Source: Blastocatellia bacterium (lineage in GTDB: Bacteria; Acidobacteriota; Blastocatellia; RBC074). From it: a stretch of DNA of 64,000 nucleotides. The stretch is from the NCBI GenBank assembly GCA_035275345.1, contig DATEMY010000358.1, positions 8,314 to 72,313 on the forward strand, written 5' to 3'. Under the pieces are notes generated by a model. The model saw nothing but the letters and a program-made list of their open reading frames with translations, was not told the DNA's origin and made no database searches. Made by a program: the position numbers and the translations under genes. Position 1 is the first letter of the stretch; each line of letters starts with the position of its first letter. Of the stretch, positions 550 to 60,295 are shown piece by piece.

Positions 550-562
<13 letters not shown>
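1..562 (+). CDS. hypB: Hydrogenase maturation nickel-incorporation GTPase HypB; 5' end lies outside the window
   Basis: Reading frame is open from base 2 and encodes the P-loop GAGKTSVLEQ, then ENVGNLVCPAEF and ESEAVLLNKVDL motifs typical of HypB/UreG G3E GTPases. Stop at 560-562 overlaps the hypF start. Confidence 0.85.
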
Positions 563-2901
<2,339 letters not shown>

Positions 2902-41596: not shown

Positions 41597-41786
41597 TTCA
41601 TCCATCATTAACACCGCCGGCATCGAATCTTATTCTTTGGCGCGATCGGTCACTCGACTTGGCGCGTTCGGTCATTGTGCGGAATATCTTTTTGGGAGTA
41701 TCTGATAAAGGTAATCCGCCCTGGGCCATATATTGCGCTTTGTTTGAGCGATATCTTACAACGAAACTTTTGTGGGAGGTTACAAG

Positions 41787-44869: not shown

Positions 44870-46735
44870 GTGCCCCATCTTCCGCCATTGGCTGCATTCG
44901 TCCCGGTCAACTTCCTTCCGGCGAAAGTTGACTGCGAGCGGCGCGCCGACGGCGCGATTGCGCTGCGCTCGCCCGAACCGCTCCGCGATTACCCTCGCTG
45001 CATCGGCGAGCATCTGGAACACTGGGCGAAAGAGCGGCCAGAGACAGTCTTTCTGGCGCAGCGTAATGGCGACGGCTGGCGCAAGCTGAACTTTGCGGAG
45101 GCGCGAACTCTTGTCCGCGCGATTGCGACGAACCTGCTTGAACGTAATCTCTCCGCTGAGCGCCCGGTCGCCATCCTCTCGGAAAATTCCATCGAGCATG
45201 CGCTACTGGCTTTAGCGGCAATGCACGCAGGGATTCCGGTCGCGCCGGTTTCAGCGGCTTACTCGCTCCTTTCGCGAGATTTCAAAAAACTCGGCGCGGT
45301 CTTTTCGCTGCTCACTCCGGGACTGGTGTTTGCCGATGATGGAGAGCGGTTCGCCCCGGCGCTTGCGGCGCTCGGCAATCACGATTTTGAGCTCGTGGTC
45401 ACCCGCAACAGCGCCCCCCTGGCGCGACCGGCGCAAGCCTTCGCCGAACTCTTGGATCGCGAAGATGCGACGGCGGTGGAGCGCGCTTTCGCTTCCCTCG
45501 GGCCTGACACGATTGCCAAATTCCTACTGACTTCAGGTTCGACCGGAGAGCCGAAAGCCGTCATCAACACTCAGCGGATGCTCTGCTCCAACCAACAGGC
45601 GCACGCGCAATGTTGGCCCTTCCTCAAAGAAGAGCCGCCCGTCATCGTGGACTGGCTGCCGTGGAATCACACGATGGCGGGCAACAACATTTTCGGCGCG
45701 GCGCTCACCCACGGCGGCTCTTATTACATTGACGAAGGCCGCCCGCTCCCCGGTCTGGTCGAAAAGACCGCGCGCAATTTGCGCGAAATCGCTCCGACCA
45801 TCTATTACAACGTGCCGCGCGGCTACGACGCGCTGCTGCCTTTCCTCGAAAGCGAGGCCGAATTACGGCGCAATTTTTTCTCGCGTTTGAAGGTCATGTG
45901 TTACGGCGGAGCGGCGCTCCCAGCCATAGTGTGGGATCGGCTCAACCGATTGGCCGAAGCCGAATTGGGCAAGCGCGTTCACATTTGCGCCGGCTACGGT
46001 TCGACCGAGACGGCGCCGGGCGCGACGATTGCGCATTACGAGGTCACTGGCGCCGGCGTCATCGGGCTTCCTATTCCCGGCGTGACGCTGAAGCTGACGT
46101 CCCTGGCGAATTCCGACAAATACGAATTGCGCGTGAAAGGCCCCAACGTCACGCCAGGTTACTGGCGGCGCGAGGATTTGACCGCCGCGGCCTTTGACGA
46201 AGAAGGCTTTTACAAAATCGGCGACGCCGCGCGCCTGGTTGACGCAGGCGATCCCGCCAAAGGTCTGGAATTCGCCGGGCGAGTTTCGGAAGAATTTAAA
46301 CTGACCAGCGGCACGTGGGTTCGCACAAGCGCGTTGCGCATTAAAGCCATCGCCGCGCTAGCGCCTGTCGCGCAGGACGTCGTTGTCGCCGGACAGGATC
46401 GCAATGACATACGCTTTTTGATCTTCCCGAATCTGGCCGGTTGCCGCAGCCTGTGCGCTGAATCGAGCGAAGGGACGCCGCCTGATGAATTGCTGGCTGA
46501 TGCGCGCGTGCGCGAGCGGGTACGCGCTGGTCTGGCAAAGCTGAAAGCGGAAGGCGCCGGCAGTTCGACATACGCCACGCACGCGATGTTTCTGACCGAG
46601 CCGCCTTCAATTGACGCAGGTGAGATCACTGATAAAGGCTATATCAATCAGCGCGCAGTGTTGGAACGACGGGCGGAGTTGGTTGAGGAGTTATATGCCG
46701 CGACAACGTCGTCGGATTTGAATTTAGGATATTGA
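44870..46735 (+). CDS. AMP-dependent synthetase/ligase, feruloyl-CoA-synthetase-like acyl-CoA ligase
   Basis: AMP-binding motif LLTSGSTGEPKAV, 621 aa; overall pattern of Fcs-type CoA ligases. Exact substrate not inferable. Confidence 0.65.
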   Translation: MPHLPPLAAFVPVNFLPAKVDCERRADGAIALRSPEPLRDYPRCIGEHLEHWAKERPETVFLAQRNGDGWRKLNFAEARTLVRAIATNLLERNLSAERPVAILSENSIEHALLALAAMHAGIPVAPVSAAYSLLSRDFKKLGAVFSLLTPGLVFADDGERFAPALAALGNHDFELVVTRNSAPLARPAQAFAELLDREDATAVERAFASLGPDTIAKFLLTSGSTGEPKAVINTQRMLCSNQQAHAQCWPFLKEEPPVIVDWLPWNHTMAGNNIFGAALTHGGSYYIDEGRPLPGLVEKTARNLREIAPTIYYNVPRGYDALLPFLESEAELRRNFFSRLKVMCYGGAALPAIVWDRLNRLAEAELGKRVHICAGYGSTETAPGATIAHYEVTGAGVIGLPIPGVTLKLTSLANSDKYELRVKGPNVTPGYWRREDLTAAAFDEEGFYKIGDAARLVDAGDPAKGLEFAGRVSEEFKLTSGTWVRTSALRIKAIAALAPVAQDVVVAGQDRNDIRFLIFPNLAGCRSLCAESSEGTPPDELLADARVRERVRAGLAKLKAEGAGSSTYATHAMFLTEPPSIDAGEITDKGYINQRAVLERRAELVEELYAATTSSDLNLGY

Positions 46736-46949
46736 TATTGTTTACCTGAACGGTTATGGCTTTCCGGCGTGGCGTGGCGGGCCGATGTTGTACGCCGATA
46801 CCGTTGGCGTAAAGGAAGTCTATGGCCGAGAATGCGAATTCCATGCGCGGCGCGGCGCCTGGTGGGAGCCTGCGCCACTACTCAAACGGCTTGCTGAGAC
46901 GGGCGGGACCTTCGCCGCTTGGGACAAAGACAAGGAGGCAAAGAAATGA
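46728..46949 (+). pseudogene. Relic of the C-terminus of a 3-hydroxyacyl-CoA dehydrogenase (no start codon, about 73 codons)
   Basis: Frame opened right after a TAG encodes DIDIVYLNGYGFPAWRGGPMLYADTVGVKEVYGRECEFHARRGAWWEPAPLLKRLAETGGTFAAWD, matching the conserved C-terminal tail of multidomain 3-hydroxyacyl-CoA dehydrogenases. Its TGA overlaps the next gene's ATG. Confidence 0.4.
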
Positions 46950-47791
46950 ACACCGACGACTTGATCGCCATTGACGTACACGTTCACCTCGAAACTGAAA
47001 TCGAAGACAACGCGGCCAATGAAGCCGCAAAGAAATACTTCGGCGATTCCGGCCTGGGCCGCAACCGTCACGAACTGGCCGAGTATTACCGCTCGCGCAA
47101 GATCGGCTGCGTGATCTTCACCGTAGACGAGCGGCTCACGGGCCGTCCGCCGATTCCGAACGATGAGATCGCCGCTTTCGCCGCCGAGAACGCCGACATC
47201 ATGTTCGCCTTTGCGAGCGTTGACCCGACGCGCGGCCAGGAGGCCGTGGATGAAGCGAAGCGACTGATCGCGGCGGGCGGCATTCGCGGCTTCAAACTGC
47301 ATCCACCGCTGCAACAGTTCCACCCGAACGACCAACGTATTTATCCGTTTTACGAAGTCATCAACGAAGCCAGACTGCCGGTGATCTTTCACACCGGCCA
47401 CAGCGGCATCGGCACGGGGCAGCGCGGCGGAGGCGGCGTCCGGCTCAAATACGGCGCCCCGATGGATATTGACGACGTGGCCGTAGACTTTCCCGATATG
47501 CCGATCATCATGGCGCACCCGTCATTCCCCTGGCAGGACGAAGCCATTTCGATTTGCCTGCACAAGCCACAGGTTTACATTGATCTGTCGGGCTGGTCGC
47601 CGAAGTATTTCTCACCGACTCTGGTGCAGTATGCGAACACGCTGCTTAAACACAAGGTGCTGTTCGGCTCCGATTATCCGTTGATCTCGCCGGATCGTTG
47701 GATGGCCGACTTCGAGAAGATCGCCGTCCGTGAGGAGGTGCGACCGCTGATTTTGAAGGAAAATGCGCTGCGGCTGTTTGGGTTGAGCTGA
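46946..47791 (+). CDS. Amidohydrolase-2 family metal-dependent hydrolase (ACMSD/LigJ-like TIM barrel)
   Basis: ATG at 46946 after AAGGAGG; N-terminal AIDVHVHLE metal-binding motif; 281 aa. Confidence 0.6.
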   Translation: MNTDDLIAIDVHVHLETEIEDNAANEAAKKYFGDSGLGRNRHELAEYYRSRKIGCVIFTVDERLTGRPPIPNDEIAAFAAENADIMFAFASVDPTRGQEAVDEAKRLIAAGGIRGFKLHPPLQQFHPNDQRIYPFYEVINEARLPVIFHTGHSGIGTGQRGGGGVRLKYGAPMDIDDVAVDFPDMPIIMAHPSFPWQDEAISICLHKPQVYIDLSGWSPKYFSPTLVQYANTLLKHKVLFGSDYPLISPDRWMADFEKIAVREEVRPLILKENALRLFGLS

Positions 47792-47879: not shown

Positions 47880-48911
47880 TCATACCGAATGGGTTTCGTT
47901 AGCGGAGGGCAGGAACGACTCGATCAAATTTCCCAGATTCTGTGCGGTAGCCAGATCATAGATGAACTTGCTGACAGCCAGGTCGAGAATGCCCAGTCCG
48001 AAGGGGCTGAAGATGACCGGACGATTTCCGTCGCTCCGCGCTTCGGCGGCGCCTCTGATGATGTCTCCGATCGTGCAACGTATGAAGTCACGGTTGCCAG
48101 AAAGCCGTTCGGCCAGATGGACAGAGGTTTCGGCCCGGCACACATGATCAACATCATCAACGACGTTGTCAGACGACAGAATGATTTCCGGAGAGAGGTC
48201 TCGCAATGAGACGTGCAGGATCGTGCTGGCGGGTTGGATGAGAGCCGGATCGAAAATATGCGGCGTGCCCGCAGTGGTCGCCATGCTCACGAGCGTCGCG
48301 CTTCCGAAAACCTCATTGAGATCGCTGGCGACTTCGACGTCGATGTGGCCGAAAACTTCCTGACCTCTGACCTTGAATTCAGCGGCCCGCGACGGATCCA
48401 GGTCGAAGACCTTGAACCGTCGCAGATCGGGGAAAGTGGCGCGCAGAAACCGGGCGATTTCAAAGTTAATCGGGCCACAGCCGACCAATCCTGCCGAGCC
48501 GATCTGTTCTCTGCTACAGAGGAGTTTCGCGGCCAGCGCGGCGCTCGCCGCCGTCCGTTTAGCGCTGATCATCGAACCTTCCAGAATGGCTTCCACCCTT
48601 CCCGTCAATAAGTTATTCAGGATCACGACCGCCGAAGCTCGATCCAGATTTTGGGAGACGTTATCCGGAAAGGAGGAGATCCATTTGATGCCGGCGACAT
48701 TGAACCGGTTTCCGAGGTAGGCCGGGAGCGCGATGATTCGGTTTTGTGGCTGGCCGGGGAATCGCAGGAAACTGGAATGCGGTAGCGAACTTTCTCCCAG
48801 CGCATGGATTTCATAGGCCGCCCCCACGATGTCCATGAGATCGGCTTCACGGTCGCTAATGAGCGAGAGGACTTCCTTCGCGGTTAAGATGCGCACACTG
48901 TTGGAATACAT
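47880..48911 (-). CDS. Ornithine cyclodeaminase/mu-crystallin family NAD-dependent enzyme, SbnB-like
   Basis: OCD-family pattern with Rossmann segment GLVGCGPINFEIARFL; 343 aa. Co-clustered with an SbnA-like gene. Confidence 0.7.
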   Translation of the reverse strand: MYSNSVRILTAKEVLSLISDREADLMDIVGAAYEIHALGESSLPHSSFLRFPGQPQNRIIALPAYLGNRFNVAGIKWISSFPDNVSQNLDRASAVVILNNLLTGRVEAILEGSMISAKRTAASAALAAKLLCSREQIGSAGLVGCGPINFEIARFLRATFPDLRRFKVFDLDPSRAAEFKVRGQEVFGHIDVEVASDLNEVFGSATLVSMATTAGTPHIFDPALIQPASTILHVSLRDLSPEIILSSDNVVDDVDHVCRAETSVHLAERLSGNRDFIRCTIGDIIRGAAEARSDGNRPVIFSPFGLGILDLAVSKFIYDLATAQNLGNLIESFLPSANETHSV

Positions 48912-49020
48912 GAAAAACCTTCAGATTCGTTTCTCGGAGATGGTTTACATCCCGGATATTGTTGCGGAACCACTCGTCAGAGTAGATACATTGGTACTGC
49001 AAAGAGCCGTTTCTTAAAGA

Positions 49021-49626
49021 TCAATTCCCGGCGCTTGTCTCTATTTTTTCCAGCCGGCCATTACCATCGAGTGTTTTGAGGTTTATGTCGGCTATGCATC
49101 TGACATTCACATAATCCAACATCAGGGCGCCTTCGACATGAACCACCCCACTTCCGTTTTCAAAATCGGCTTTGCTGAAATCACAAGCATCACGATCCAA
49201 TCTGATGCCCAATTCCGTGCCCCCCTTCGTCTCGGTGAACTTAACATGAACATAATTGCGATCGACCGCCTCCTTGAAGAGCTTAACAGTCTTTTCCGGA
49301 CGCAGCCCTGCTTCAATGACATGGTCGCCTTCGCAAAGTCTATCCACAAGACTCTTCTCACGCGGCCTGTTCGTGTCGGGAGGCGGAGGCGGAGGCGGAG
49401 GGTTCTTAGCCATCTCCTCCATCTTTTTCTTGAGACTGAGGGGCCTCATATCCGTCCAAACTTCCTTGATGAAAGCGAGGCATTCGGCTTTCGGCCCCAC
49501 TTTCCCGCCGTCATTCCAACCGATTGGGTTCTCTTTGTATTCAGGCCAAATCGAATACTGTTCCTCGTGGTTTACGACAACTTTGTAAGTGGTAGTGTCT
49601 TCTTTGTCAGGGTCGGCCCAACTCAT
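49021..49626 (-). CDS. MbtH-like domain fused via a poly-Pro linker to a C-terminal domain of unknown function
   Basis: N-terminal [49 protein letters not shown] matches the MbtH signature. PPPPPPPP linker, then about 110 aa of unassigned domain. Confidence 0.7.
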
Positions 49627-49628
49627 AA

Positions 49629-50192
49629 TTATGTAATCTCCTTTTTATGTGAAGCCATGGCTGCGCGCGCAGCCGGTTGCTCGAACCGGAGCATTCGTTC
49701 GTCTCTTGTGAGAAGACGGCACAGGCCGTATTCCGTCAAGAAAGTTTTCTCTCCGGCCGAAAAGCCCAGTTGAGTACACAGAAACGATGACTGCGCTACC
49801 GCGGCGCCGAGCACAAGCCAGGTGTACTCAAAATTCCTTGGCGCCACGAACAGCCGGTGCGCTTCCAGCATCATTTTCATTGGGATGTTCAGACCGCGAT
49901 ATGATCGGATTACCGCTAATTGCGTGTAACGAGCCGACCTCGCCGACGGGGTAAATTCCAAGCAACATTTTTGGTGTAGCGCAAGATCTCCAGTGGTTTC
50001 GACCACGCTCAGCGTCGCAACGGGCTTACACTGCAGATCATCGATCGCCAAGATATGAAGCGCGTCTGAATTGTCGCTTACTCTTAGCGGCGCGAGCGCA
50101 ATCTTCAGTTCCTGCTCAAAGACGGATCGTCTGATATCCAACATCGCCGCTTCCTGGAAGCGGGTCGTAACCGGCTCTATTATTATCGCCAT
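49629..50192 (-). CDS. Hypothetical protein, possibly GNAT-fold N-acyltransferase
   Basis: 187 aa; weak resemblance to acyl-CoA N-acyltransferase folds; 2-nt spacing to the MbtH-fusion gene. Confidence 0.3.
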
Positions 50193-50376
50193 TTGAATTT
50201 CTCCTTTCCATAACTTGGAGTTTCCGATCCGGCGATCGATCCGATTCGATTTTCCCGCAATCCAATTTGATTACTCGATCCGCCAGATGAAAATATTTAT
50301 CGTCATGATTGATGGCCAATATGCACTTACCTCGACTTTGCGGGCGCCGTCCGCCACAGGCGAGTTGATCTGTTCT

Positions 50377-51429
50377 CTACGAGTAGAGGGTCCTCAAGGG
50401 GAAAGACTTCATTTCCTGGTCGGTTGGCTGCAAGTTCCAAGATCTCCCTCCCTCCTCAAATGGTATCTCCCAGAGGTGTGAGACATCCCCGAAATGTTCC
50501 AAGACCCATTGGTCCGAATAAATCGTGTCCATATATCGATCGCCTCGGTCCGGCAAGATAACTACGCAATTGGAACCGTCCGGAATTCTACCTTGTGACT
50601 TATTTACCGCGCTGATAACGGCTCCCGAAGATCCGCCCGCCAAAATCAACTCTTCCCTGACAAGTCGGCGGCAACCGACAACGCAATCCAGATCGGACAC
50701 CAGGACACACTCATCCGCCAGGTGAGGCTCGTAAAGCGATGGTCTGACCGACGCGCCATGACCTGGGATCAAGCGACGACTTGTCTTCCCGCCGAAGATC
50801 ACACTGCCTAGCGCGTCTACCGCAATTATTCTGGTTCTCAGATCTTGAACGTAGGCGTACTCAGAGCAACCGCGAAGCGTCCCGCATGTGCTTGTCGCAC
50901 AAAACAAGTAATCGACTCGCCCATCCAGGGCCTCGGCGATTTCACGCATGGTTTGATGATGGGCCTGGGCATTCCACAAGTTCGCATATTGATTCGGCCA
51001 AAAGCTGTGTGGAATCTGCGCCGTCAATTGCTTAACCCGATCGATTCGCGCCTGGAGATACTCGCCCGTAAGAGGGTCAGGTACCGTCACACACTCAATC
51101 TCGGCCCCGTACAGTCTCAAAATGTCGAGATTTTGCTTGGTAGTCTTGGGATCCACCACACACACAAACCGCAGGCCGAAGTACCGGCACATTTGAGCCA
51201 GCCCGATTCCCATATTCCCCGAGCTGGACTCGACTACGGTCGCGCCTGGACTAAGCTCCCCCGATATAACGGCATTTTTGATGATAGTCAGCGCAGTTCG
51301 ATCTTTTATGCTCCCGCCGGGATTAACCCCTTCAAGTTTGGCGAATAATCGAAAGCGCGCGTCAGGAAAAATCCGACTGAGCCGCGCCATCGGGGTATTG
51401 CCGATTTTCGAGATTATATCTCCAATCAT
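50377..51429 (-). CDS. PLP-dependent cysteine-synthase-fold enzyme, SbnA-like (N-(2-amino-2-carboxyethyl)-L-glutamate synthase family)
   Basis: NPGGSIKDR PLP-Lys motif, WPNQYAN, ILPDRGDRY, YSDQWV. Pattern closely parallels staphyloferrin SbnA. ATG at 51429 after GGGGAGAG. Confidence 0.75.
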   Translation of the reverse strand: MIGDIISKIGNTPMARLSRIFPDARFRLFAKLEGVNPGGSIKDRTALTIIKNAVISGELSPGATVVESSSGNMGIGLAQMCRYFGLRFVCVVDPKTTKQNLDILRLYGAEIECVTVPDPLTGEYLQARIDRVKQLTAQIPHSFWPNQYANLWNAQAHHQTMREIAEALDGRVDYLFCATSTCGTLRGCSEYAYVQDLRTRIIAVDALGSVIFGGKTSRRLIPGHGASVRPSLYEPHLADECVLVSDLDCVVGCRRLVREELILAGGSSGAVISAVNKSQGRIPDGSNCVVILPDRGDRYMDTIYSDQWVLEHFGDVSHLWEIPFEEGGRSWNLQPTDQEMKSFPLRTLYS

Positions 51430-51478
51430 CGCTTTCTCTCCCCTATTGTCTGAGTCTGTTGTTCCGGACAACCGAAAG

Positions 51479-51888
51479 TTAAACGGGGACGGCTGCTGTT
51501 GATGCAATGGACGTCTTCAACGCATTGGCTAGGCCCCGGACATTTGGCTCTCGTAGGATGGTGGTGTGGTTTCCGGGAACCCGGCGCCGAGTTATTTGCG
51601 CCGATGCATATTTGCCCCAACCCAGAGTCGAATCTGCGGGTTTGTTCTCGTGTCCATCATCGGCGGTGAAGATTGCGATCTCCCCGTGAAAAATTGCGGG
51701 ATTGTATTTTCGCAGAGCCGCCATGTTTTTCTTGGCGACTTCCAGGAAGCGCCGGGCATAGGTGATTTCGATATCAGGTGGTCGAACGGTAAATCAAGAA
51801 CGCCAGGGCTGCCCTTTAACCGGTTGGTCCAATAGTCGAGCTGCGATGTCAGCCCCCCACTTTGCAGCCATTTCTGAAATATCCTCAT
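51479..51888 (-). pseudogene. Frame-scrambled remnants of NRPS condensation and thioesterase domains downstream of the adenylation domain
   Basis: ORF 51592-51888 encodes LDYWTNRLKGSPGVLDLPFDH (condensation-domain N-terminal region). ORF 51479-51724 in another frame encodes AIFTADDGHE...VPGNHTTILREPNVRGLANAL (thioesterase C-terminal region). Neither is a full domain. Confidence 0.45.
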
Positions 51889-53236
51889 GATCGCGTAACA
51901 GCTTTTCTATTTCGCCCAATTCAACTCTTACACCCCTGATCTTGACCTGGTTATCCAGCCGACCGATCAACTCGAAATCCCCATTGAGCGTGACTCGACC
52001 GATGTCTCCTGTTCGGTAGATGAGGTCCTGAGGATCGTTTACGTTAAAGGGGTTCCGAATGAACGACTCCCGAGTCAGTTCAGGTTGTCGATAATATCCA
52101 TGGGAGCGATAGGGAGTGCGGATGAAGATTTCACCGACGACCCCTGGTGGACAGACCTCCATCTTTTCATCGAGCACCAACGCCTTGGCCCCTCTGATCG
52201 GCTTTCCCACCGGGATCAGACGGCGTTCCTGATCTGCAGGTTGGATAAAATAACAGAACTTGGCAAGCGTAGTTTCTGTAGGCCCATAAAGATTGACCAG
52301 TTGGATACGGTCGCCAAAAACGCTATACCATTTCTTCAGATCTGCAGGAAAAATCGGTTCTCCCGCCAGGAGGATGTACTTTAACGATTGGAAAGAATCA
52401 GGGCTCAGGGGCTCATTCAATATTGACCTGAACAGGCTGGGGGTGCAATGCATCAGGTTGATCTGGGCCGAATCAATCCATCTGACCAATTTCTCCGAGT
52501 CGAGCGCCGTCTCCCGATCCGGCGGGAGAGATAGTGTGGCTCCCGCGCATAAAGGTAGAAAGATATCTCTGAGAAACGGGTCAAAGGAGGGCGGAGTGAG
52601 CTGACTTACCCGGAAGTTTTCGTTTACTCCACATGTCTCGATCTCCCAATCTATGAAATGTAATAGACCGCGGCGGCTCCCGGCGATTCCCTTTGGTTTA
52701 CCGGTAGAGCCGGAAGTAAAGTAGATATAGCCGAGGTCCTTCGGGTTGTCGTTTGATACCTTCAACTCTTCCCCGGAAAAACTGGCGCAATGAGGAATCT
52801 TTCTCACGTGAACCGCCTGACCGGCCTTAATCACAATGATGGAGCAATCCGAACGGTTGTTTGCCGCGATCTGCTCGGCCGCTTCCTCGAATCCTTTTTC
52901 CACTATGAATCCTTGCGGCTCCGCTGTCGAGACCATTGCTTTGAGTCGGTTGACCGGGTATTTAGTATCCAGGGGCGCGAAAACGCAATTTGCCTTCAGT
53001 ACTCCGATGATGGATGCCACCAATTCAGCCGTATCCTCTATCAGTAAAGCCACGACGGAGCCATTAGCGACCCCGGCCGACGTCAACAGATCTCGCACCT
53101 TATTCGACCGCTGTTCCAACTCGTCATAAGAAAGTATGTGATCTTGCCATACTATTGCGTCTTTAGATCCGCGCTTTTTACCGCGCTCAATCAGTAAGTC
53201 AACGATTTCGCTGTTAATCGTTTGAGTAAGCTCCAT
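51794..53236 (-). CDS. NRPS adenylation domain, stand-alone and truncated after core A8 (lacks A9/A10 and any carrier domain)
   Basis: Cores A1 LSYDEL, A3 YFTSGSTGKPKGI, A4 FDPF, A5 NLYGPTETT, A7 YRTGDIGR, A8 GRLDNQVKIRGVRVELGEIE. Only about 35 aa follow A8. ATG at 53236 after AAGGAG. Confidence 0.7.
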   Translation of the reverse strand: MELTQTINSEIVDLLIERGKKRGSKDAIVWQDHILSYDELEQRSNKVRDLLTSAGVANGSVVALLIEDTAELVASIIGVLKANCVFAPLDTKYPVNRLKAMVSTAEPQGFIVEKGFEEAAEQIAANNRSDCSIIVIKAGQAVHVRKIPHCASFSGEELKVSNDNPKDLGYIYFTSGSTGKPKGIAGSRRGLLHFIDWEIETCGVNENFRVSQLTPPSFDPFLRDIFLPLCAGATLSLPPDRETALDSEKLVRWIDSAQINLMHCTPSLFRSILNEPLSPDSFQSLKYILLAGEPIFPADLKKWYSVFGDRIQLVNLYGPTETTLAKFCYFIQPADQERRLIPVGKPIRGAKALVLDEKMEVCPPGVVGEIFIRTPYRSHGYYRQPELTRESFIRNPFNVNDPQDLIYRTGDIGRVTLNGDFELIGRLDNQVKIRGVRVELGEIEKLLRDHEDISEMAAKWGADIAARLLDQPVKGQPWRS

Positions 53237-53746
53237 TGGCGCGCTCCTTTTTGAATGGGTATAGGATGAAGAAGTAATGTGGAAGAGATGACAAGCTTCG
53301 CTGGAGTGATTGCTGCTGATGCCCTTGAACATGGTCCGGGGGCTGACCAAACCCGGAAACGTCAAAACCTGATTAAGCCCGGTGAGATCGACTTCGCGCG
53401 TCGCCCCAGGATAACAGAGCGCCTATGAGATAATTGATTAGCAGCTCTCATTGCCATTATCCATGCGGCTCAGTTATTCCCAAACACAGACAGGCTACCG
53501 CTATTGCGTTTGGAATCTTCCTCCGCCCTCGGCTTCCGAGTAGGCTACCGCCATCGCAATTCTGCCCACCCTCCCAGACTTTTCCGACGGTGATACCTAA
53601 CGAGCGCCGATTACCAAGGGAATGAGCGCGCAGGGCGCAGAACATTTTTCTCTCTGATCGACTTCCTTAACTGACAAAACTATGAACGCGCTTACGCCAA
53701 GTCTTTTTATCTTTCCGGCTCCTGCTTCTGAAACAACACTCAAGGG

Positions 53747-56368
53747 TTATGCGGCTTTTGCTAGGCATGCGCCTTGCGTTGCCTTACGACCGGGATGAAC
53801 CAACGCCGGTCTGAACCCATGGCGATCAGCCAGCCAACCCATCTCCCTGACCTTATCAATGTCTAGATCAATTCCGAGGCTGGTATCTTCAAACCTATGC
53901 TCCAAAGCCAGGATCATAGTTTCGGCCATGCAGGCATAGGCAAGCCCGGTGTCTATATCCAGGGTGAAACTGATCTTAGAGTCGCCCGGCAAACTCACCA
54001 CGCCGCCATCGATCACAAAGATATCAGGACGGCTCATTCTGACGGCTCGACTTACATTCGGCGGGCGTGAGATATCACATACAACCGCCCCCTCTTTGAT
54101 GTATTCAGGCGCCGCCAAATCACCTGCTACATTTGTCGAAGTAATCACTACGTCAGCTTCTAGGAGCGACTGACGCATGTCGCGAGTGTCGGTAATAACA
54201 CACAAGCGGCGCCCCATTTCTGTGGCGAGTCCAATCCAATCTATCCTGCCTCTGTCCTGACGTCCGGCAAGCAGGAGGTCGCAGATCTCACCGGCGAGTG
54301 TTCCTTTAAGAAAGCTTTTGCCTTGCAAACCCAGTTCCTGGATCGAGCGTAAAATTTCCACGCTTACTTGTACCAGGCGGCGCTTACTCTCCGCCGGACG
54401 AGCCGGATTTCCGATTAAAAACAGTCTCTCTACATGCTGCGAGAGCAGAATGGAGATGGCGCGCCCTATCGAACCTGTGGCGCCCACAACTGCCGTACAG
54501 CTTGTAGACAAACGGCGCCCAGTCATCTCAAGCGCCGCTTCGATGGATTGCTTGGCGGCGACGGCAGTATAGGAGTTGCCAGTGGTCAGCGGCGGCAATC
54601 CATTGTCTCCGAGGTAAAGACCACCACGCGTTACTATCGACGTATACGCGCCCAATCCGATTATTTTCGCTCCCCTTTCCTGAGCTATCCGCACCGCCGT
54701 CCTTATTTCTGATACGGCCTCGTAATAGGGCATCTGCGTCAGCTCTTCCGCGGTGCGCGGCACGATAATGAACTCGCCGTAAGCAGTCTGACCAGTCTTT
54801 GAGACGACGTGCGCATCGCCGATTACGAATGGGTCAAAATTCTCGGCGACACATGAGGCCAGTCGCGCAACCTGCCGATCTGAAAGTATGCTAAGGCTTG
54901 TGTCGATGTTCGCATAGTCACGCACTGTCAATGGATGCAGAAGAAAGGCAAAGCGATTGACTCTATCGGTCACGGGGAATTGGTAGACGTTCGAACGCCC
55001 CTGGGGCTTCAACTCCTTGACGTCAACATCTATTCCCGTAAGATGGGTGGTGAAATACGCCGTGTTGCGTAACTCCAATGCATCCAGGGTATCTTCAAAA
55101 GCTTCCAGGAAAAGCTCACACTCCTTCCAGGTAGCGATCAGCGGAGGTTCGATGCGGAGCACCCCGCCATCGTTCAGGGTATATCCTAGGCGTACGCCGC
55201 TTACCGCCAGCATACGACTCACAACGAGCGAAGCTAAGGCTTCATTTTCTCCAAGGCAGCCCAGCAGACCGGAACCCCAGTTGAAGCGGTTGATGCCTAA
55301 ACGAATTCCCAGCATGTAGCCGCGTCCGCTAATTACGTTGACAATGTTCGGATGTTTCTCCTTAAGATACTGCAATTCCTGTTTCAAGCGAGCGCCGTTA
55401 TCCGCAACCTGCCTGATTAACTGGCGGTCGTTTTCCTCCAGGAGATCCAGCGTGGCCAATCCGATTCTGCACGCGAGAGTATTTCCGGCGAAAGTAGAAG
55501 TGTGCTTCAGCGCGAAATCATCATTGTAAACATCTTCCTTACATAAGCAGGCGCCGATCGGCGCCAGCCCGCCGCCGAGGGCTTTAGCAATGGTAATAAC
55601 ATCCGGAATAACCCCCTCAGTATCGCAGGCAAACATCGCACCGGTGCGCCCCAAACCTGTTTGGATTTCATCGACGATCATCTTGGTCCCGCTTTTCCTA
55701 CAGATTTCTCCGGATTGCGCGAGATACCCTGGAGGCGCCTCGATGATCCCCCCTTCTCCTTGAATCGGTTCGACGATGAAGGCCGAATAAAACCGGCTGG
55801 CTAACGCGCGTTCAAGCGCCCCAAGATCGCCGAAAGGAACATAATCAAACCCATTGACCGGCGCCCCGAAACCTTCCTGATACTTTCTCTTATCGGTTGC
55901 GGACAGGGCGCCCAGGGTTTTCCCATGGAAACCGTTATTGGTGGCCAGAACACCGATCCTGCCTGTGCTGGACCGGCACAGCTTAAGAGCGGCTTCGACC
56001 GTTTCAGCCCCACTGTTGGCAAAGGTCACGTACTTCATACCCGGTGGCGCCACATTGACCAGCCGCTTTGCTAATTCACCGGCGGCTTCAAGGCAGGAGG
56101 GTTGAACTAAGCTCGGCTCAAGACGTGTTCGCACCTGCTCAACGGCTTGCCATATATATGGATTGTTGAACCCGAATGGGAGGGCGCCATATTGAGCCAG
56201 AAAGTCCAGATAACGCCTTCCCGACTGATCGTAAAGGTAACAACCTTCCCCCCGAACGAACACCTTATCCATCTCAAATTGCGACATCAACCGCCCAAGG
56301 CGCGGATTCATATGGTTGAAGAACGGATGATCCCGTCTTAAAGACTTTTCTTGTTCGTCTTTCATCAT
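53747..56368 (-). CDS. Bifunctional fusion: class-III (omega) aminotransferase domain + acyl-ACP reductase (AAR)-like NAD(P)H-dependent reductase domain
   Basis: N-terminus has PLP motifs DEIQTGLGRTG and ITIAKALGGG. C-terminal 340 aa (GAYTSIVTRGG...TTGNSYTAVAAK...AVVGATGSIGRAISILL...DKVREMGWLADRHGFRPALV) parallels cyanobacterial acyl-ACP reductase. Start ATGATG at 56368 after AAAGGAG. Confidence 0.75.
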   Translation of the reverse strand: MMKDEQEKSLRRDHPFFNHMNPRLGRLMSQFEMDKVFVRGEGCYLYDQSGRRYLDFLAQYGALPFGFNNPYIWQAVEQVRTRLEPSLVQPSCLEAAGELAKRLVNVAPPGMKYVTFANSGAETVEAALKLCRSSTGRIGVLATNNGFHGKTLGALSATDKRKYQEGFGAPVNGFDYVPFGDLGALERALASRFYSAFIVEPIQGEGGIIEAPPGYLAQSGEICRKSGTKMIVDEIQTGLGRTGAMFACDTEGVIPDVITIAKALGGGLAPIGACLCKEDVYNDDFALKHTSTFAGNTLACRIGLATLDLLEENDRQLIRQVADNGARLKQELQYLKEKHPNIVNVISGRGYMLGIRLGINRFNWGSGLLGCLGENEALASLVVSRMLAVSGVRLGYTLNDGGVLRIEPPLIATWKECELFLEAFEDTLDALELRNTAYFTTHLTGIDVDVKELKPQGRSNVYQFPVTDRVNRFAFLLHPLTVRDYANIDTSLSILSDRQVARLASCVAENFDPFVIGDAHVVSKTGQTAYGEFIIVPRTAEELTQMPYYEAVSEIRTAVRIAQERGAKIIGLGAYTSIVTRGGLYLGDNGLPPLTTGNSYTAVAAKQSIEAALEMTGRRLSTSCTAVVGATGSIGRAISILLSQHVERLFLIGNPARPAESKRRLVQVSVEILRSIQELGLQGKSFLKGTLAGEICDLLLAGRQDRGRIDWIGLATEMGRRLCVITDTRDMRQSLLEADVVITSTNVAGDLAAPEYIKEGAVVCDISRPPNVSRAVRMSRPDIFVIDGGVVSLPGDSKISFTLDIDTGLAYACMAETMILALEHRFEDTSLGIDLDIDKVREMGWLADRHGFRPALVHPGRKATQGACLAKAA

Positions 56369-58424
56369 TGTCGCTCCTTTCATTTTTCGTGGGGTAAACA
56401 AGAAGGAATGACGCTAATTGGGATATGCTTGGATCGCCTCTGAAAAGGTTGTCAATGGGAACCTCTATCCCAAGCGATTCTTCAATACTGCTTACAAGCT
56501 CGGTTGCGGCAAGAGAGTCCAGACCATAGCGGGCAATAGGCTGATCCGTGTCTATTTTATGGGGGCTGATATTAAACATTGAGGAACACTTAAGCGACAG
56601 CCAAGCTTTCAATGACTCCAAGGTCCGCGGCGCGTCTTCGGGCTGGAGAGTTTGCCCGCTCGCCGACTGGCTGGCTGTGAACTGGCGTCGATAAACCGAC
56701 TCCAGGCTTTCGTTCAGAAACGCGGAGCGGACTGCGCTGCGCTGAATCTTACCGCTGGATGTTTTCAGTAAGCTTCCAGGTCTAATCAATACGATGGTGG
56801 AAATATCTATTTCGTGTTCTACCAGGATCGCCTGGCGGACGCTATCCACCACTTCATTCATATCGACACTGTTTCGACGCTCACGATTCAATTCGGCGAC
56901 TAAGATCAATCGCTCCGTCTCATCACCAGCTACGGCGAAAGCCGCCGAACATCCCGGACGCAACGCCGGGTGACTCGCTTCCGCCGTAATCTCTATATCC
57001 TGCGGGTAATGGTTGCGTCCGCGAATGACGATCAGGTCCTTAATGCGCCCGGTCACATATAAGTCGCCATGAAAGAGGACTCCAAGGTCTCCCGTGCGTA
57101 GGTATGGACCTTCATTGGTATCGGTGAGCCGCGCGCGGAAAGTCGCATCGGTCAACTCCGGTCTTCCCCAATATCCTTGAGCCACGGCGGCGCTCGATAC
57201 CCAGATTTCTCCCACTTGACATTCATCACATTTAGTGAGGGTCTGTGGATTAACGGTAATAATTCGTTCTCCGAGCCATGTCCGTCCGCTGCTTACAAGC
57301 GTTACTCCGTCCTGAAGACGACTGGACACAATCGCTCTGTGATCTTCCAGCCCGGCTTTATCGAAAGTAGTGACGGCCGGAGCTTTTGAACCTACGCCTC
57401 CACTCACAAATAAGGTAGCTTCGGCGAGTCCATAGCATGGATATAACGCCTCCGGGCGAAACCCGTATGGTGAAAAGGCCTCGGCAAATCGTCTCAGCGT
57501 CTCATCTCGAACAGGTTCCGAACCGTTGAATGCGGTTCTCCAGCAACTCAGGTCCAACCCCTCGAGGTCTTCCTGACGCGCTTTACGCACACAGAGATCG
57601 TATGCGAAGTTTGGCCCCCCGCTGAAAGTGGCCCTGTATTTCGATATGGCCTTCAACCAACATGCCGGTTTCTGTAGGAACTCCGTAGGCGCCATCAGGT
57701 AACACGGAGCGCCATTGTACATTCCCGCAAGAATGTTCCCGATTAGGCCCATGTCGTGATACATCGGTAACCATGACACGATGACAGTGTCGCCATCATG
57801 TCGGAGGCCTTCTCTCATCATCGCCTGGTTATATAGGAGGTTACCGTGACTCACCAGCACGCCTTTCGGCGTCGAAGTGGAACCGGATGTGTATTGCAGA
57901 AATGCGATGGTCTCCTCATTAACTCTGGTTTCCTTCCAGAGTTCCGCCTGCCCCAGGTCGACGTCGTCTGTTATAACCCACCGTATGGATCTTAACTTGG
58001 GGATCTGATCCAACTGGTTTTGAAGGCGTGAGAATATAGCCGAGGTAGTCAATGCGACTACCGGGTTTGAATCATCAATAATAGCTAGTAAACGTCCCAG
58101 ATTTTGGTTCAATCGTGGCGGATTAGCGGGAACGGCCACAGCCCTTCCATAAAGACAGGCGTAAAAAGCGACGATATAATCCAACCCTGGCGGGTAGAGA
58201 AGCAGGACCCGTTCATCCTGCGCCTTCAGCTCCTGAAGATGGGCGGCGACGGCGCGGGCTTTATGCTGTAATTGAGCGAAGGTCAACCGGTCCGCCTCTT
58301 CACAATCAGATAGAAAAACATAGCTTGGCTGGTCCGGTTGTATTTTGGCCATTGCGTTCATTACATCAATGAACGAAGAGGCGCGACTCAAATCAAATCC
58401 ATATTGTGATATTTGACTATTCAT
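56274..58424 (-). CDS. Fatty acyl-AMP ligase (FAAL) fused to a C-terminal acyl carrier protein domain
   Basis: AMP-binding cores (YTSGSTSTPKGV, YRTGDLG, GRIKDLIVIRGRNHYPQDIE). C-terminal PP-binding segment LDSLAATELVSSIEESLGIEVPIDNLF with Ser in DSL. 8-nt overlap (ATGAATAG) with the upstream receiver gene. Confidence 0.8.
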   Translation of the reverse strand: MNSQISQYGFDLSRASSFIDVMNAMAKIQPDQPSYVFLSDCEEADRLTFAQLQHKARAVAAHLQELKAQDERVLLLYPPGLDYIVAFYACLYGRAVAVPANPPRLNQNLGRLLAIIDDSNPVVALTTSAIFSRLQNQLDQIPKLRSIRWVITDDVDLGQAELWKETRVNEETIAFLQYTSGSTSTPKGVLVSHGNLLYNQAMMREGLRHDGDTVIVSWLPMYHDMGLIGNILAGMYNGAPCYLMAPTEFLQKPACWLKAISKYRATFSGGPNFAYDLCVRKARQEDLEGLDLSCWRTAFNGSEPVRDETLRRFAEAFSPYGFRPEALYPCYGLAEATLFVSGGVGSKAPAVTTFDKAGLEDHRAIVSSRLQDGVTLVSSGRTWLGERIITVNPQTLTKCDECQVGEIWVSSAAVAQGYWGRPELTDATFRARLTDTNEGPYLRTGDLGVLFHGDLYVTGRIKDLIVIRGRNHYPQDIEITAEASHPALRPGCSAAFAVAGDETERLILVAELNRERRNSVDMNEVVDSVRQAILVEHEIDISTIVLIRPGSLLKTSSGKIQRSAVRSAFLNESLESVYRRQFTASQSASGQTLQPEDAPRTLESLKAWLSLKCSSMFNISPHKIDTDQPIARYGLDSLAATELVSSIEESLGIEVPIDNLFRGDPSISQLASFLLVYPTKNERSDNDERRTRKVFKTGSSVLQPYESAPWAVDVAI

Positions 58425-58806
58425 GGCTCACCTTTCCGACAAGCTCAAATACAATTCGAGCGACTTCCGACAGAGGCTTCGGCTTGTGCAGGAACGCGTG
58501 CGCGCCGCAATCTCGGGCGGCCGACTCTACATCGCTGGAACCGTAAGCCGTTAAGACAATAACTCGCATTTCAGGGAATCGTTCCCGAGCCATACTTATT
58601 ACCTCGAACCCGTCCAGGCTATGAGTTCCACTTAAGTCCAAATCTACAATCACAGCTGAATAGCAAGATGTGTTAAGGAGACTCGCAGCTTCGTCTACGG
58701 CATGGGCGCAATCAACTTGATAGTCATACAGCTTGAAGTACTCGCGCATTGCGAAGCAGAGCGTCGCTTTATCGTCAACCATCAGTATTTTTCTCTCGCC
58801 GTACAT
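58417..58806 (-). CDS. Stand-alone response-regulator receiver domain (CheY-like)
   Basis: 129 aa; conserved DD...D...K receiver pattern (MVDDK, VIVDLDL, LTAYG, HAFLHKP). Confidence 0.75.
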   Translation of the reverse strand: MYGERKILMVDDKATLCFAMREYFKLYDYQVDCAHAVDEAASLLNTSCYSAVIVDLDLSGTHSLDGFEVISMARERFPEMRVIVLTAYGSSDVESAARDCGAHAFLHKPKPLSEVARIVFELVGKVSHE

Positions 58807-58817
58807 GCGCTCCTTTT

Positions 58818-58833
58818 AGCAAATCGCGCTCCA
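58818..58833 (-). promoter_or_regulatory. Candidate sigma-54 promoter (-24/-12): TGGAGCGCGATTTGCT, GG-N10-GC spacing correct
   Basis: Minus-strand sequence CGCCTCGTGGAGCGCGATTTGCTAAAAGGAGCGCATG. Matches 10 of 12 defined positions of TGGCACG-N4-TTGCW. Sits only about 11 nt upstream of the receiver ATG, so a leaderless transcript would be implied. Confidence 0.25.
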
Positions 58834-58939
58834 CGAGGCGTATGATCTCGTCCCTCTACTAAACCTCGAAAATTGACGATATTGATTTTAGAGTGAGAGT
58901 GGATCAGGAGGCGGGTTGTCTGAGATTCAGAATAGGATT

Positions 58940-60295
58940 CTAGACTTTGGACGTGGTTATCTGGAACTTCTTGATTTTCTGGTAAAGCGAACTTCGGGGG
59001 ATACCAAGGCGCTTCGCCGCGCGTTCGACCTGGCCATTCTCCTCCGCAAGCACCAGTTCGATGTGTCGACGTTCGAGTTCCAGCAGGGAAAGTTGTGAAT
59101 CATAGACCGGCGTTTCCCTCTTCGCCGCGTCATCGAAGCGCAGGTCTGTGGCCAGCAGAATGCGCCGCTCGCTGAGCAGCGCTGCGCGTTCGAGCACATT
59201 GCGCAACTCACGTATATTCCCCGGCCAAGCATACGCCAGAAGCGCGCGTTCCGCATCCGGCGATAGTTCCAAGTCGTTACGACCGAGGTCGGCGGCGCAT
59301 TTTGCAAGCAGATGCCGCGCGAGCGCCGGTATGTCCTCGACTCTTTCCCGGAGGGCCGGCGTCATCAGTGGAATTGTGCTGATTCGATAGTAAAGGTCAC
59401 TGCGGAATCTATTTTCCCTCATTAATCGGCTGAGGTCCTGACAGGTAGCGGCGACCAGGCGGACATCGACTTGCCGGTCGCGAACACTTCCCAGCCGACG
59501 GAACTTTTGTTCCTCCAGAACCTTGAGTAGTTTTGGTTGCACTTGCAAATCGACGTCTCCGATCTCGTCAAGGAATACCGTGCCGCGATGGGCCACTTCG
59601 AATAGGCCGAGTTTGCTTGTCGTCGCCCCGGTGAATGCCCCCTTCTCGTGGCCGAACAACTCAGTTTCAAGAAACCCTTGTGACAACCCCGCACAGTTAA
59701 GATCAACAAAAGGTTCTTCGCATCGGGCGCTGTTGTTATGTATCCACTGCGAGAGCACGCCCTTGCCAACGCCCGTTTCGCCGAGAAGCAGGATTGGGCT
59801 CTCCGTCGACAACACCCTTTTTGACTGTTCGGCCAATTGTCTGATGGCGGCGCTAGAGCCGATGAACGGATCGACGGCTTGGCGGGCTTGTTGCGACTTC
59901 CGGGCAATTTGCTTCCGAAGGTTGCGCTGGTTTTCAAGCAAACGCTCGAGAATGACCAGAAGTGTTGAAAGGTCAAGCGGCTTGGTAAGAAATTGCTCGG
60001 CGCCTTCCTTAATCGCCCGCACCGCCAGGTCGATTGACCCGTGGCCGGTCAGAATAATTAGAGGGGCGCCCGGATCTATCGCTTTCAGTCGAGGTAAGAG
60101 ATCGAGCGCAGTGCCGTCCGGCAATAAATAGTCGATGACGGCTGCATCGGGGCGCATAGCCCTAAACATATCTTCCGCTCCCCGACAACAGTTCGTGTCA
60201 TAAGCCTCATACCCGTGCGCCTCAAGAAATTCGCGCATTCCGAATCGGACGCCGGATTCGTCATCTACTATCAAAATCTTACTCTTCGACATCAA
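58940..60295 (-). CDS. Sigma-54-dependent response regulator (NtrC family): receiver + AAA+ sigma-54 activator + Fis-type HTH
   Basis: Receiver (ILIVDDE...D...K). Walker A LLGETGVGKGV. GAFTGA loop (HEKGAFTGATT). Arginine finger region. C-terminal HTH RAAKRLGIPRSSLYQKIKKF. Confidence 0.8.
   Translation of the reverse strand: MMSKSKILIVDDESGVRFGMREFLEAHGYEAYDTNCCRGAEDMFRAMRPDAAVIDYLLPDGTALDLLPRLKAIDPGAPLIILTGHGSIDLAVRAIKEGAEQFLTKPLDLSTLLVILERLLENQRNLRKQIARKSQQARQAVDPFIGSSAAIRQLAEQSKRVLSTESPILLLGETGVGKGVLSQWIHNNSARCEEPFVDLNCAGLSQGFLETELFGHEKGAFTGATTSKLGLFEVAHRGTVFLDEIGDVDLQVQPKLLKVLEEQKFRRLGSVRDRQVDVRLVAATCQDLSRLMRENRFRSDLYYRISTIPLMTPALRERVEDIPALARHLLAKCAADLGRNDLELSPDAERALLAYAWPGNIRELRNVLERAALLSERRILLATDLRFDDAAKRETPVYDSQLSLLELERRHIELVLAEENGQVERAAKRLGIPRSSLYQKIKKFQITTSKV

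Follow-up and report, generated by a model that had tools for sequence, protein, structure and literature searches.

Two overlapping genes in a 64,000-nucleotide stretch of DNA from a soil acidobacterial contig (the window, i.e. the whole stretch analysed) probably constitute a TamA/TamH-type module that would make a primary fatty amine from a free fatty acid. [quoted passage not shown] Both the architecture and the chemistry were published between 2019 and 2022, and a claim to a new enzyme architecture does not stand. Coordinates are positions in the window, and all features given with coordinates lie on the (-) strand.

The FAAL-ACP didomain gene (56274..58424; ATG start) encodes 716 aa. The adenylation domain is found at about 56700..58349 (Pfam AMP-binding, residues 26-419, E 3.8e-63) and the carrier domain at about 56403..56585 (Pfam PP-binding, residues 614-674, E 1.3e-12). 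PF23024, the FAAL-typical C-terminal subdomain, covers residues 463-575 in the Pfam search. The phosphopantetheine serine, Ser637, belongs to a GLDSLA motif (codon at 56514..56516). The top single-enzyme NCBIfam models are fatty-acid--AMP ligases: PRK05850 (493 bits, under its curated cut-off of 775) and FadD32 (451 bits, also under its cut-off). The protein is an adenylation enzyme with an ACP, its FAAL class being predicted from models that score below cut-off. A preliminary description of this DNA had read it in the same way, as a 716-aa FAAL carrying its own C-terminal ACP with a DSL serine, and the Pfam AMP-binding, PF23024 and PP-binding matches together with Ser637 bear out this layout.

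The bifunctional transaminase/AAR-family reductase gene (53747..56365) encodes 872 aa counted from a conserved Met. The longest open reading frame (53747..56401; 884 aa) has a TTG start; the TTG at 56401 was dropped in favour of the Met at 56365, which is preceded by an AAAGGAG ribosome-binding site and conserved in relatives. The public gene call starts at 56311 and gives 854 aa. Residue numbers below are those of the 884-aa frame. The class-III PLP aminotransferase domain (55085..56263; residues 47-439; Aminotran_3 E 3.5e-85) includes the Schiff-base Lys273 (codon at 55583..55585), the motif around which aligns with LAKSLGGG of PtTamH; its top PDB matches are PigE 4PPM (7e-77) and the putrescine aminotransferase YgjG (2e-75). 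The AAR-family thioester reductase domain (53804..54955; residues about 483-866) contains a TTGNSYT motif (residues 606-612), the GxxGxxG motif GATGSIG (residues 640-646; 54464..54484) and the catalytic Cys824 (codon at 53930..53932), aligned with AAR Cys294. Lys273, the GxxGxxG motif and Cys824 are invariant across 15 homologues at 48-80% identity.

The assignment of the C-terminal domain was examined by sequence and by structure. [quoted passage not shown] The structure model of the domain alone (pLDDT 83, pTM 0.86) has AAR 6JZU as its top PDB neighbour in Foldseek (E 1.3e-22; target TM-score 0.84). TIGR04058, the cyanobacterial AAR equivalog model, gives 92 bits (E 4e-26) against a cut-off of 449.7. 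The best NCBIfam match is the PigE equivalog model NF053554 (545 bits, under the cut-off of 850), which aligns in three stretches with the domains permuted. No match to GluTR or to shikimate dehydrogenase ranks above AAR in PDB, NCBIfam or Foldseek; an identity of either type was rejected, the Rossmann part giving only weak sub-threshold Pfam matches and AAR ranking far higher. As judged from these matches, the domain is an AAR homologue and not an equivalog. The fusion of an aminotransferase with an AAR-type domain, proposed in the preliminary description for the 884-aa frame, is upheld by the Aminotran_3 match, the PDB match to AAR and the AAR-like model, with the start corrected. The same description had named two grounds for refutation, a better alignment to shikimate/glutamyl-tRNA reductase-type proteins with no conserved AAR cysteine, or a missing PLP lysine. 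Cys824 is conserved, AAR outranks both alternatives, and Lys273 is present; both outcomes favour the functional reading.

The closest characterised counterparts in layout are PtTamA and PtTamH, of the tambjamine YP1 pathway of Pseudoalteromonas tunicata (PMC5939613, PMC9594044). PtTamH has an N-terminal transaminase and a C-terminal AAR-family reductase (PMC9594044); the latter is called AAR by its characterisers (27-28% identity to cyanobacterial AARs, GxxGxxG, catalytic C887; PMC9594044). PtTamA (FAAL-like adenylation domain and ACP) and PtTamH together convert a C12 acid into a C12 amine in vitro (PMC9594044), and PtTamH requires acyl-ACP, not acyl-CoA (PMC9594044; bioRxiv 10.1101/2025.08.11.669332). 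Two statements of the preliminary description were therefore wrong: that the TamH reductase is an NRPS-type (SDR) thioester reductase, since it was characterised as an AAR (PMC9594044), and that no fusion of AAR and aminotransferase had been described, since at least three such fusions are on record, PtTamH (2022), KecF (2019) and PigE (2021) (PMC9594044, PMC6498172, PMC8341465).

The window pair has the two-protein layout of PtTamA/PtTamH and is colinear with them over the full length. FAAL-ACP aligns with PtTamA across both domains (E 1e-124, 34% identity, 663 aa), with the carrier Ser637 opposite TamA S622. The transaminase-reductase aligns with PtTamH (BLASTP; E 2e-63, 28% identity, 777 aa), with YACMAET and GATGSIG opposite TamH YACCGET (C887) and GAAGNIG; the PLP-lysine motif is aligned as well. 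Unlike PtTamA/PtTamH, to which it is only 34% and 28% identical, the pair is hosted by an acidobacterium (Blastocatellia MAG), and its neighbours in relatives include sigma-54-type regulators, a NusG paralogue and PKS/NRPS genes. Unlike the tambjamine YP1 locus, the window lacks bipyrrole (MBC) genes, a TamT-type desaturase and a condensing enzyme; Pfam scans of the larger ORFs found no MBC genes and no condensing enzyme in the window, and a tambjamine or prodigiosin cluster was rejected for want of MBC genes. The remaining window content comprises regulators, L-2,3-diaminopropionate (Dap) genes, a TonB-type receptor, and genes for hydrogenase maturation and respiration.

Other known systems share part of this anatomy. 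PigE, of the MAP branch of prodigiosin biosynthesis, has the two domains in reversed order, reductase first (PMC8341465). Like the window protein, PigE (PDB 4PPM) holds both activities in one chain, and it is the best PDB sequence match for each half; unlike the window protein, it has its reductase at the N-terminus and acts on a branched keto-thioester supplied by PigD. The cyanobacterial AAR (Orf1594; 6JZQ/6JZU/6JZY) has the fold, GxxGxxG, TTGN, catalytic Cys and C-terminal RHGF in common with the window domain; it is, however, a protein of about 340 aa that stands alone and passes its aldehyde to the deformylating oxygenase ADO, whereas the window domain forms one chain with a transaminase. 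The sequence thioester, aldehyde, amine is also the logic of the TR domain plus transaminase of coelimycin-type PKSs and of TabE plus TabA, the Streptomyces route to tambjamine BE-18591. In those routes the reductase is not fused to the transaminase and comes from another family, being either of SDR type (the TR domain) or ALDH-like (TabE).

The proposed conversion has four steps, all drawn from homology and anatomy. The FAAL-type domain would adenylate a fatty acid and load it onto its own ACP, on the phosphopantetheine arm at Ser637. The acyl-ACP would then dock onto the second protein at its C-terminal AAR-family domain, where the acyl group would be transferred to Cys824 and reduced with NAD(P)H to the fatty aldehyde. 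The N-terminal class-III PLP transaminase (Lys273) would finally convert the aldehyde into the amine with an amino-acid donor. The order given in the preliminary description (a self-loading FAAL-ACP, AAR-type release, transamination) is supported by gene-by-gene homology to the biochemically tested TamA/TamH and is likewise a prediction.

Several observations count against a fatty-amine module. The pair is only 28-34% identical to the characterised enzymes. For its two proteins every equivalog model scores below its cut-off (PigE 545/850, TIGR04058 92/450, PRK05850 493/775). Some homologues use extended polyketide chains (KecF; locus L026, where a PKS module separates the two genes). Finally, amine-using genes are missing or broken in the window, so the pair may be a relic.

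The two genes overlap out of frame by 92 nt (56274..56365), the end of FAAL-ACP covering the start of the transaminase-reductase. The 92-nt overlap and both frames are retained in relatives L001, L083 and L085, and the two frames of L084 overlap too. This overlap, in the window and in relatives, fits coupled expression. Each gene is open over its full length, retains all catalytic residues and is 77-82% identical to its counterparts in relatives. Elsewhere the parts occur in one chain: homologues P0041 and P0049 (about 1532 aa) are FAAL-ACP-transaminase-AAR proteins, and homologues P0048 and P0091 are ACP-transaminase-AAR fusions. These natural fusions connect the predicted carrier to the predicted reductase and are counted in favour of the fatty-amine module.

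Upstream of the pair lie two regulators. A single-domain response regulator gene (58417..58806; Pfam Response_reg E 8.9e-18) shares 8 nt with the start of FAAL-ACP and has an identical position in all close relatives (L001, L083, L084, L085). A sigma-54 enhancer-binding response regulator (58940..60295; receiver, AAA+ and HTH_8 domains) lies further upstream, and in L084 and L085 a homologue directly precedes the cassette. No sigma-54 promoter was matched near the operon at <=1 mismatch; a generic promoter/terminator scan returned fewer sites than shuffled sequence and was hence uninformative. In the close Blastocatellia relatives the cassette consists of response regulator, FAAL-ACP, transaminase-reductase and NusG paralogue, and stands at the head of PKS/NRPS clusters. 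Where its start is visible (L001, L085), the downstream NRPS/synthetase begins with its own FAAL-like module. The amine is, for this reason, most likely a separate building block, e.g. an amine cap.

This context bears on a first alternative, in which the transaminase-reductase would release a longer PKS/NRPS-bound intermediate, FAAL-ACP would be just a lipid-loading module, and the product would be an amino-polyketide or a cyclic imine. Its model is KecF, of the koreenceine cluster of Pseudomonas koreensis, with an N-terminal transaminase and a C-terminal AAR (PMC6498172) and a proposed role in releasing and transaminating a triketide (PMC6498172). KecF has the domain order of the window protein and the same proposed logic, reduction then transamination; homologues from Pseudomonas (L036, L065; possible kec clusters) share about 44% identity with the window protein and are closer to it than TamH. 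A KS-AT PKS module is located between FAAL-ACP and transaminase-reductase in L026, a PKS just upstream in L004 and a KS-first PKS downstream in L084. KecF, however, is proposed to act on a chain extended by a type II PKS, with subsequent cyclisation, whereas no KS or other PKS gene is found in the window. The two genes moreover overlap here and are fused in other organisms, and the downstream synthetases of L001 and L085 have a FAAL-like module at their own start. Release of an extended chain is accordingly considered unlikely.

Downstream of the pair, synthetase genes are represented by fragments. An asparagine-synthase-like fragment of 36 codons (53312..53419; tblastn 81% identity, E 4e-14) corresponds to residues 167-202 of a 623-aa protein. 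A truncated adenylation-domain gene (51794..53236) matches residues 1-450 of 642-aa A-PCP orthologues; it stops just past motif A8, with A9, A10 and the PCP missing. Its match to the A-PCP of L086 (tblastn, 68% identity) is confined to the same residues 1-450, and its nearest homologues are all A-PCP proteins of about 640-650 aa. The closest orthologues (L086-L088) occur in unrelated small clusters that contain KS, transaminase, methyltransferase and asparagine synthase and neither FAAL nor transaminase-reductase; these contexts were set aside. A thioesterase C-terminal fragment (51482..51793; last ~100 residues) follows in frame right after the stop of the truncated A domain. Across 102 aa it is 77% identical to the final part of an ORF that lies at the contig edge in L091, and its Pfam Thioesterase match is weak (E 0.11; profile positions 144-221 of 226). 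A 32-residue C-domain-like stretch between the A-domain and thioesterase fragments has only weak matches (tblastn E 0.005; Pfam E 0.087), and no C domain is claimed there. A stand-alone A domain coupling Dap to the amine was considered and dropped, the domain being truncated.

Further downstream, the Dap genes are intact. The SbnA-family gene (50377..51507; TIGR03945, 430 bits, cut-off 350) and the SbnB-family gene (47880..48911; TIGR03944, 413 bits, cut-off 327), both for L-2,3-diaminopropionate biosynthesis, match their models over the full length. Between them, a 187-aa protein (49629..50192) has no Pfam or NCBIfam match; its family, divergent and GNAT-like, is rare (112 representatives in 1.84 billion proteins), and the family profile matches PDB GNAT acetyltransferases (SACOL1063, 1.7e-5; Naa10, 1e-4). 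Linkage of this family with SbnA/B or with the amine module was rejected: among 80 metagenome loci, the SbnA-GNAT-MbtH arrangement is found in the sister contig L091 alone, and some other loci adjoin NusG paralogues and KS genes. The adjacent 201-aa protein (49021..49626) combines an MbtH-like domain (E 2.7e-20) with a CBF_beta-like C-terminal region (E 6.9e-6); the same fusion recurs in the clusters of relatives L001, L083 and L085 and in L091.

These fragments raise a second alternative, namely that the pair is an intact-looking remnant of a decayed cluster and makes nothing of consequence in its host. The asparagine-synthase fragment, the A domain cut after A8 and the thioesterase end are directly downstream of it; the window has neither the NusG paralogue nor the PKS/NRPS genes found after the pair in L001 and L083-L085, and it also lacks two further genes present around SbnA in L091. 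Against this stand the completeness of both frames and of their catalytic residues, their 77-82% identity to relatives, and the intact upstream regulators and downstream SbnA and SbnB genes. The view is moreover that of the window, which leaves out 23 kb of its contig and all remaining parts of the genome, and the scar region may include an assembly error. A functionless remnant is judged improbable; the synthetase genes of the window persist as fragments only, and the module may now act alone or be newly orphaned.

It is highly improbable that the C-terminal domain amidates its thioester instead of reducing it, as proposed for the terminal amidation domains (TADs) of the carmabin and vatiamide NRPSs, which are AAR-related and have the Cys and a Thr-Thr-Gly motif in common with the AAR-type domain (bioRxiv 10.1101/2024.10.28.620694): CarI TAD structures are the second-best structural neighbours (9E50, E 3e-17) and turn up in the sequence search too (9E4X, E 1e-5), but AAR is closer (E 1.3e-22, target TM-score 0.84, 24% identity vs 17-19% for TAD), the fused aldehyde-type transaminase would have no role, and the homologous TamH produces aldehyde and amine (PMC9594044).

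Read as a fatty-amine module, the pair would bring the TamA/TamH type into Acidobacteriota and into surroundings that lack bipyrrole genes. Its divergence from the characterised enzymes (28-34% identity) could widen the biocatalyst panel for fatty amines, and the decayed synthetase genes beside it provide a small example of biosynthetic cluster erosion. It also points to a very large, mostly unannotated transaminase-AAR family beyond pigment and alkaloid pathways; the fusion is found in many phyla, its members being annotated publicly just as 'class III aminotransferase'.

A wider reading joins these elements and is offered tentatively, as a rather doubtful one. Rather than serving a pigment pathway as a tailoring step, the Blastocatellia module would be a conserved, separately regulated cassette heading lipopeptide/polyketide clusters, and the amine would be a chain-terminating nucleophile or a diffusible long-chain signal. 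If so, the cassette would comprise the sigma-54 activator, response regulator, FAAL-ACP, transaminase-reductase and NusG paralogue, the visible synthetase starts bringing their own lipid loader. The cassette would have outlived the synthetases here, and its intact state beside the Dap genes after synthetase loss would suggest a function of its own. The FAAL partner is absent at 39 of the 46 transaminase-AAR family loci, which would suggest a general and unstudied way in which bacteria make fatty amines from fatty acyl-ACP.

The FAAL-ACP gene (56274..58424, minus strand) encodes a protein of 716 aa with an AMP-binding domain (Pfam, E 3.8e-63), the C-terminal subdomain typical of fatty acyl-AMP ligases (FAALs; PF23024) and a PP-binding domain (residues 614-674) with Ser637 within GLDSLA. 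A FAAL carrying its own C-terminal ACP, as read in the preliminary description, is thus borne out. Fatty-acid--AMP ligases are its top single-enzyme NCBIfam matches, every one under the curated cut-off. The next gene encodes the transaminase-reductase fusion; its longest form (53747..56401, minus strand) gives 884 aa from a TTG, and residues are numbered accordingly. Residues 47-439 form a class-III aminotransferase domain (Pfam, E 3.5e-85), whose best solved relatives in a PDB sequence search are PigE of the prodigiosin MAP branch (E 7e-77), then E. coli putrescine aminotransferase. The C-terminal region has no Pfam family above threshold. Against the PDB, it matches the acyl-ACP reductase (AAR) of Synechococcus elongatus (6JZQ/6JZU, E 1.4e-18) over nearly the entire AAR chain; the AAR catalytic Cys294 lies opposite Cys824 (YACMAET), and VVGATGSIG opposite the nucleotide-binding motif.

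Scanned alone, the C-terminal domain matches PigE (166 bits) and the acyl-ACP reductase model TIGR04058 (92 bits, E 4e-26), with no match to glutamyl-tRNA reductase or shikimate dehydrogenase models. Its AlphaFold2 model, built for this domain alone (pLDDT 83, pTM 0.86), retrieves AAR 6JZU as the top PDB structure in Foldseek (E 1.3e-22, target TM-score 0.84, 24% identity). The second neighbour is the AAR-related 'terminal amidation domain' of carmabin CarI; lower ranks are generic Rossmann dehydrogenases only, more than 10 orders of magnitude weaker. Across 15 aligned homologues (48-80% identity), no variation occurs at the PLP lysine, the three glycines or the cysteine. The proposed union of a class-III PLP aminotransferase and an AAR-like domain in one ORF is therefore upheld by Pfam, PDB match and predicted fold; AAR is favoured over glutamyl-tRNA or shikimate reductase, with the catalytic cysteine conserved, and the PLP-binding lysine is present.

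The TTG is unlikely to be the start of the fusion gene. A Met at 56365, preceded by AAAGGAG and kept in four relatives, gives 872 aa; in the public annotation the gene begins at 56311 (854 aa). Starting at 56365 creates a 92-nt out-of-frame overlap (56274..56365) with the end of the FAAL-ACP gene. The same overlap is found in three close relatives (L001, L083, L085), and the two frames of a fourth (L084) overlap too. Relatives at 77-82% identity preserve the overlap as well as the sequences of both proteins, which elsewhere form a single chain.

The domain order of the fusion is already known. For PtTamH, from the tambjamine pair of Pseudoalteromonas tunicata, its characterisers describe a PLP omega-transaminase at the N-terminus joined to a thioester reductase at the C-terminus; the latter 'can be confidently classified as an AAR', sharing 27-28% identity with cyanobacterial AARs and having GxxGxxG and catalytic C887 (PMC9594044). 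KecF of the koreenceine cluster (2019) has identical domain order and identical proposed chemistry (PMC6498172), and PigE has both domains in reverse order (PMC8341465). The claim that an AAR-aminotransferase fusion was undescribed consequently fails, as does the statement that the TamH reductase is NRPS-type rather than AAR. PtTamA joins a FAAL-like adenylation domain to an ACP (S622); in a one-pot reaction, PtTamA and PtTamH turn fatty acids into amines, and acyl-CoA is not accepted by PtTamH (PMC9594044; PMC5939613; bioRxiv 10.1101/2025.08.11.669332). In direct comparison with sequences from the supplements of the two Tam papers, the alignment of the FAAL-ACP to PtTamA spans both domains (34% identity/663 aa, E 1e-124; Ser637 opposite S622). 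The fusion is colinear with PtTamH (28% identity/777 aa, E 2e-63), and its lysine, GxxGxxG and cysteine motifs pair with the corresponding PtTamH motifs.

From this homology and anatomy, the pair probably runs the TamA/TamH reaction sequence from fatty acid to primary fatty amine, and the function first proposed is sound on the same grounds. The FAAL domain would adenylate a fatty acid; the acyl group would be self-loaded onto Ser637 of the same protein's ACP and moved to Cys824; hydride reduction would give the aldehyde, and PLP-dependent transamination at Lys273 the primary fatty amine. Direct hand-over from carrier to reductase is supported by single-chain proteins: FAAL-ACP-transaminase-AAR (P0041, P0049; about 1532 aa) and ACP-transaminase-AAR (P0048, P0091).

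Gene order in the four close relatives (L001, L083, L084, L085; 77-82% identity) is response regulator, FAAL-ACP, transaminase-reductase, NusG paralogue, sigma-54 activator. L084 and L085 have a histidine kinase and an additional sigma-54 activator upstream of the response regulator. Large PKS/NRPS genes lie downstream in L001, L084 and L085, and a gene for an MbtH fusion further downstream in L001, L083 and L085. The downstream synthetase of L001 and L085 opens with a FAAL-like module of its own, so lipid loading there does not require the stand-alone pair, whose product is more likely an amine used as a separate building block. A KecF-like role, the release of a longer chain, is unlikely for the pair in the window; such use is found at L026, where a KS-AT module lies between the two genes.

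The window is part of an 89,444-bp MEGAHIT metagenome contig whose proteins are labelled Blastocatellia bacterium by NCBI. Upstream of the pair are genes for a single-domain response regulator, overlapping the FAAL start, and a sigma-54 activator (Pfam). A two-mismatch sigma-54 -24/-12-like element (TGGAGC-N5-TTGC; 58819..58833, minus strand) precedes the response-regulator ATG by 13 nt, so close that the transcript would omit the ribosome-binding site; it is probably a chance match. A NusG gene and all synthetases are absent from the window. Three gene fragments (51482..53419, minus strand) occupy the 2.3 kb that separates the pair from SbnA. One is 36 codons from a gene for asparagine synthase; another is an A domain that matches residues 1-450 only of 642-aa A-PCP orthologues, breaking off after motif A8 and lacking a PCP; a third is the final ~100 codons of a thioesterase, with 77% identity to the final part of an ORF at the contig edge in the sister contig (L091). 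This run looks like a decayed NRPS region; it may be a chimeric assembly. That the pair is itself a relic without current role is improbable, and TAD-like amidation is very improbable.

SbnA (50377..51507) and SbnB (47880..48911), for L-2,3-diaminopropionate synthesis, are intact and above equivalog cut-offs (minus strand); no intact NRPS lies nearby as user of the product. Between them are two further minus-strand genes. In the protein of one (49021..49626), an MbtH-like domain is joined to a C-terminal part that matches CBF_beta weakly, a fusion recurring in related acidobacterial clusters (L001, L083, L085, L091). The other (49629..50192) encodes a GNAT-like protein of 187 aa without Pfam or NCBIfam match; its family is rare (112 representatives among 1.84 billion proteins), and the family profile weakly matches GNAT acetyltransferases. 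Some members adjoin NusG paralogues and PKS KS genes in soil metagenomes. Just beyond the SbnB/SbnA pair are a TonB-type receptor (41772..44831) and a 621-aa AMP-binding enzyme (44870..46735). A 232-aa ORF (46820..47518, minus strand) looks like a spurious antisense frame of an amidohydrolase gene (46919..47791, plus strand; Pfam Amidohydro_2, E 8e-48).

G+C is 51-54% in 48000..60000 versus ~60% in the remainder of the window, consistent with acquired DNA. The remainder encodes hydrogenase maturation, alternative complex III, cytochrome oxidase, a TonB-type receptor and sugar-related enzymes; the window has no bipyrrole genes. Two full-length HypF carbamoyltransferase genes (499..2901 and 28654..30972, plus strand) stand beside HypD, a HypE-like gene, a NiFe hydrogenase large subunit, and alternative complex III and cytochrome c oxidase genes.

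The fusion belongs to a very large family: 2451 of the candidates scored match significantly, GTDB species genomes contain at least 577 loci, and 144 plasmid or megaplasmid records have full-length matches. Hosts include Acidobacteriota, Bacillota, Myxococcota, Planctomycetota, Pseudomonas, Rhodococcus, Sphingomonas and Ralstonia; public names are merely 'class III aminotransferase'. Of the 46 full-length genome loci whose upstream sequence is long enough, only 7 have a FAAL-ACP gene ahead of the fusion. Fusions lacking a FAAL partner and outside obvious biosynthetic clusters are common: examples are in Symbiobacterium thermophilum (L172), on a Rhodovulum plasmid within an exosortase XrtD/polysaccharide locus (L090) and on a Ralstonia megaplasmid (L089). 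The pair in the window adds a divergent new example to a known type of enzyme pair; its host is unusual and its cluster partly decayed.
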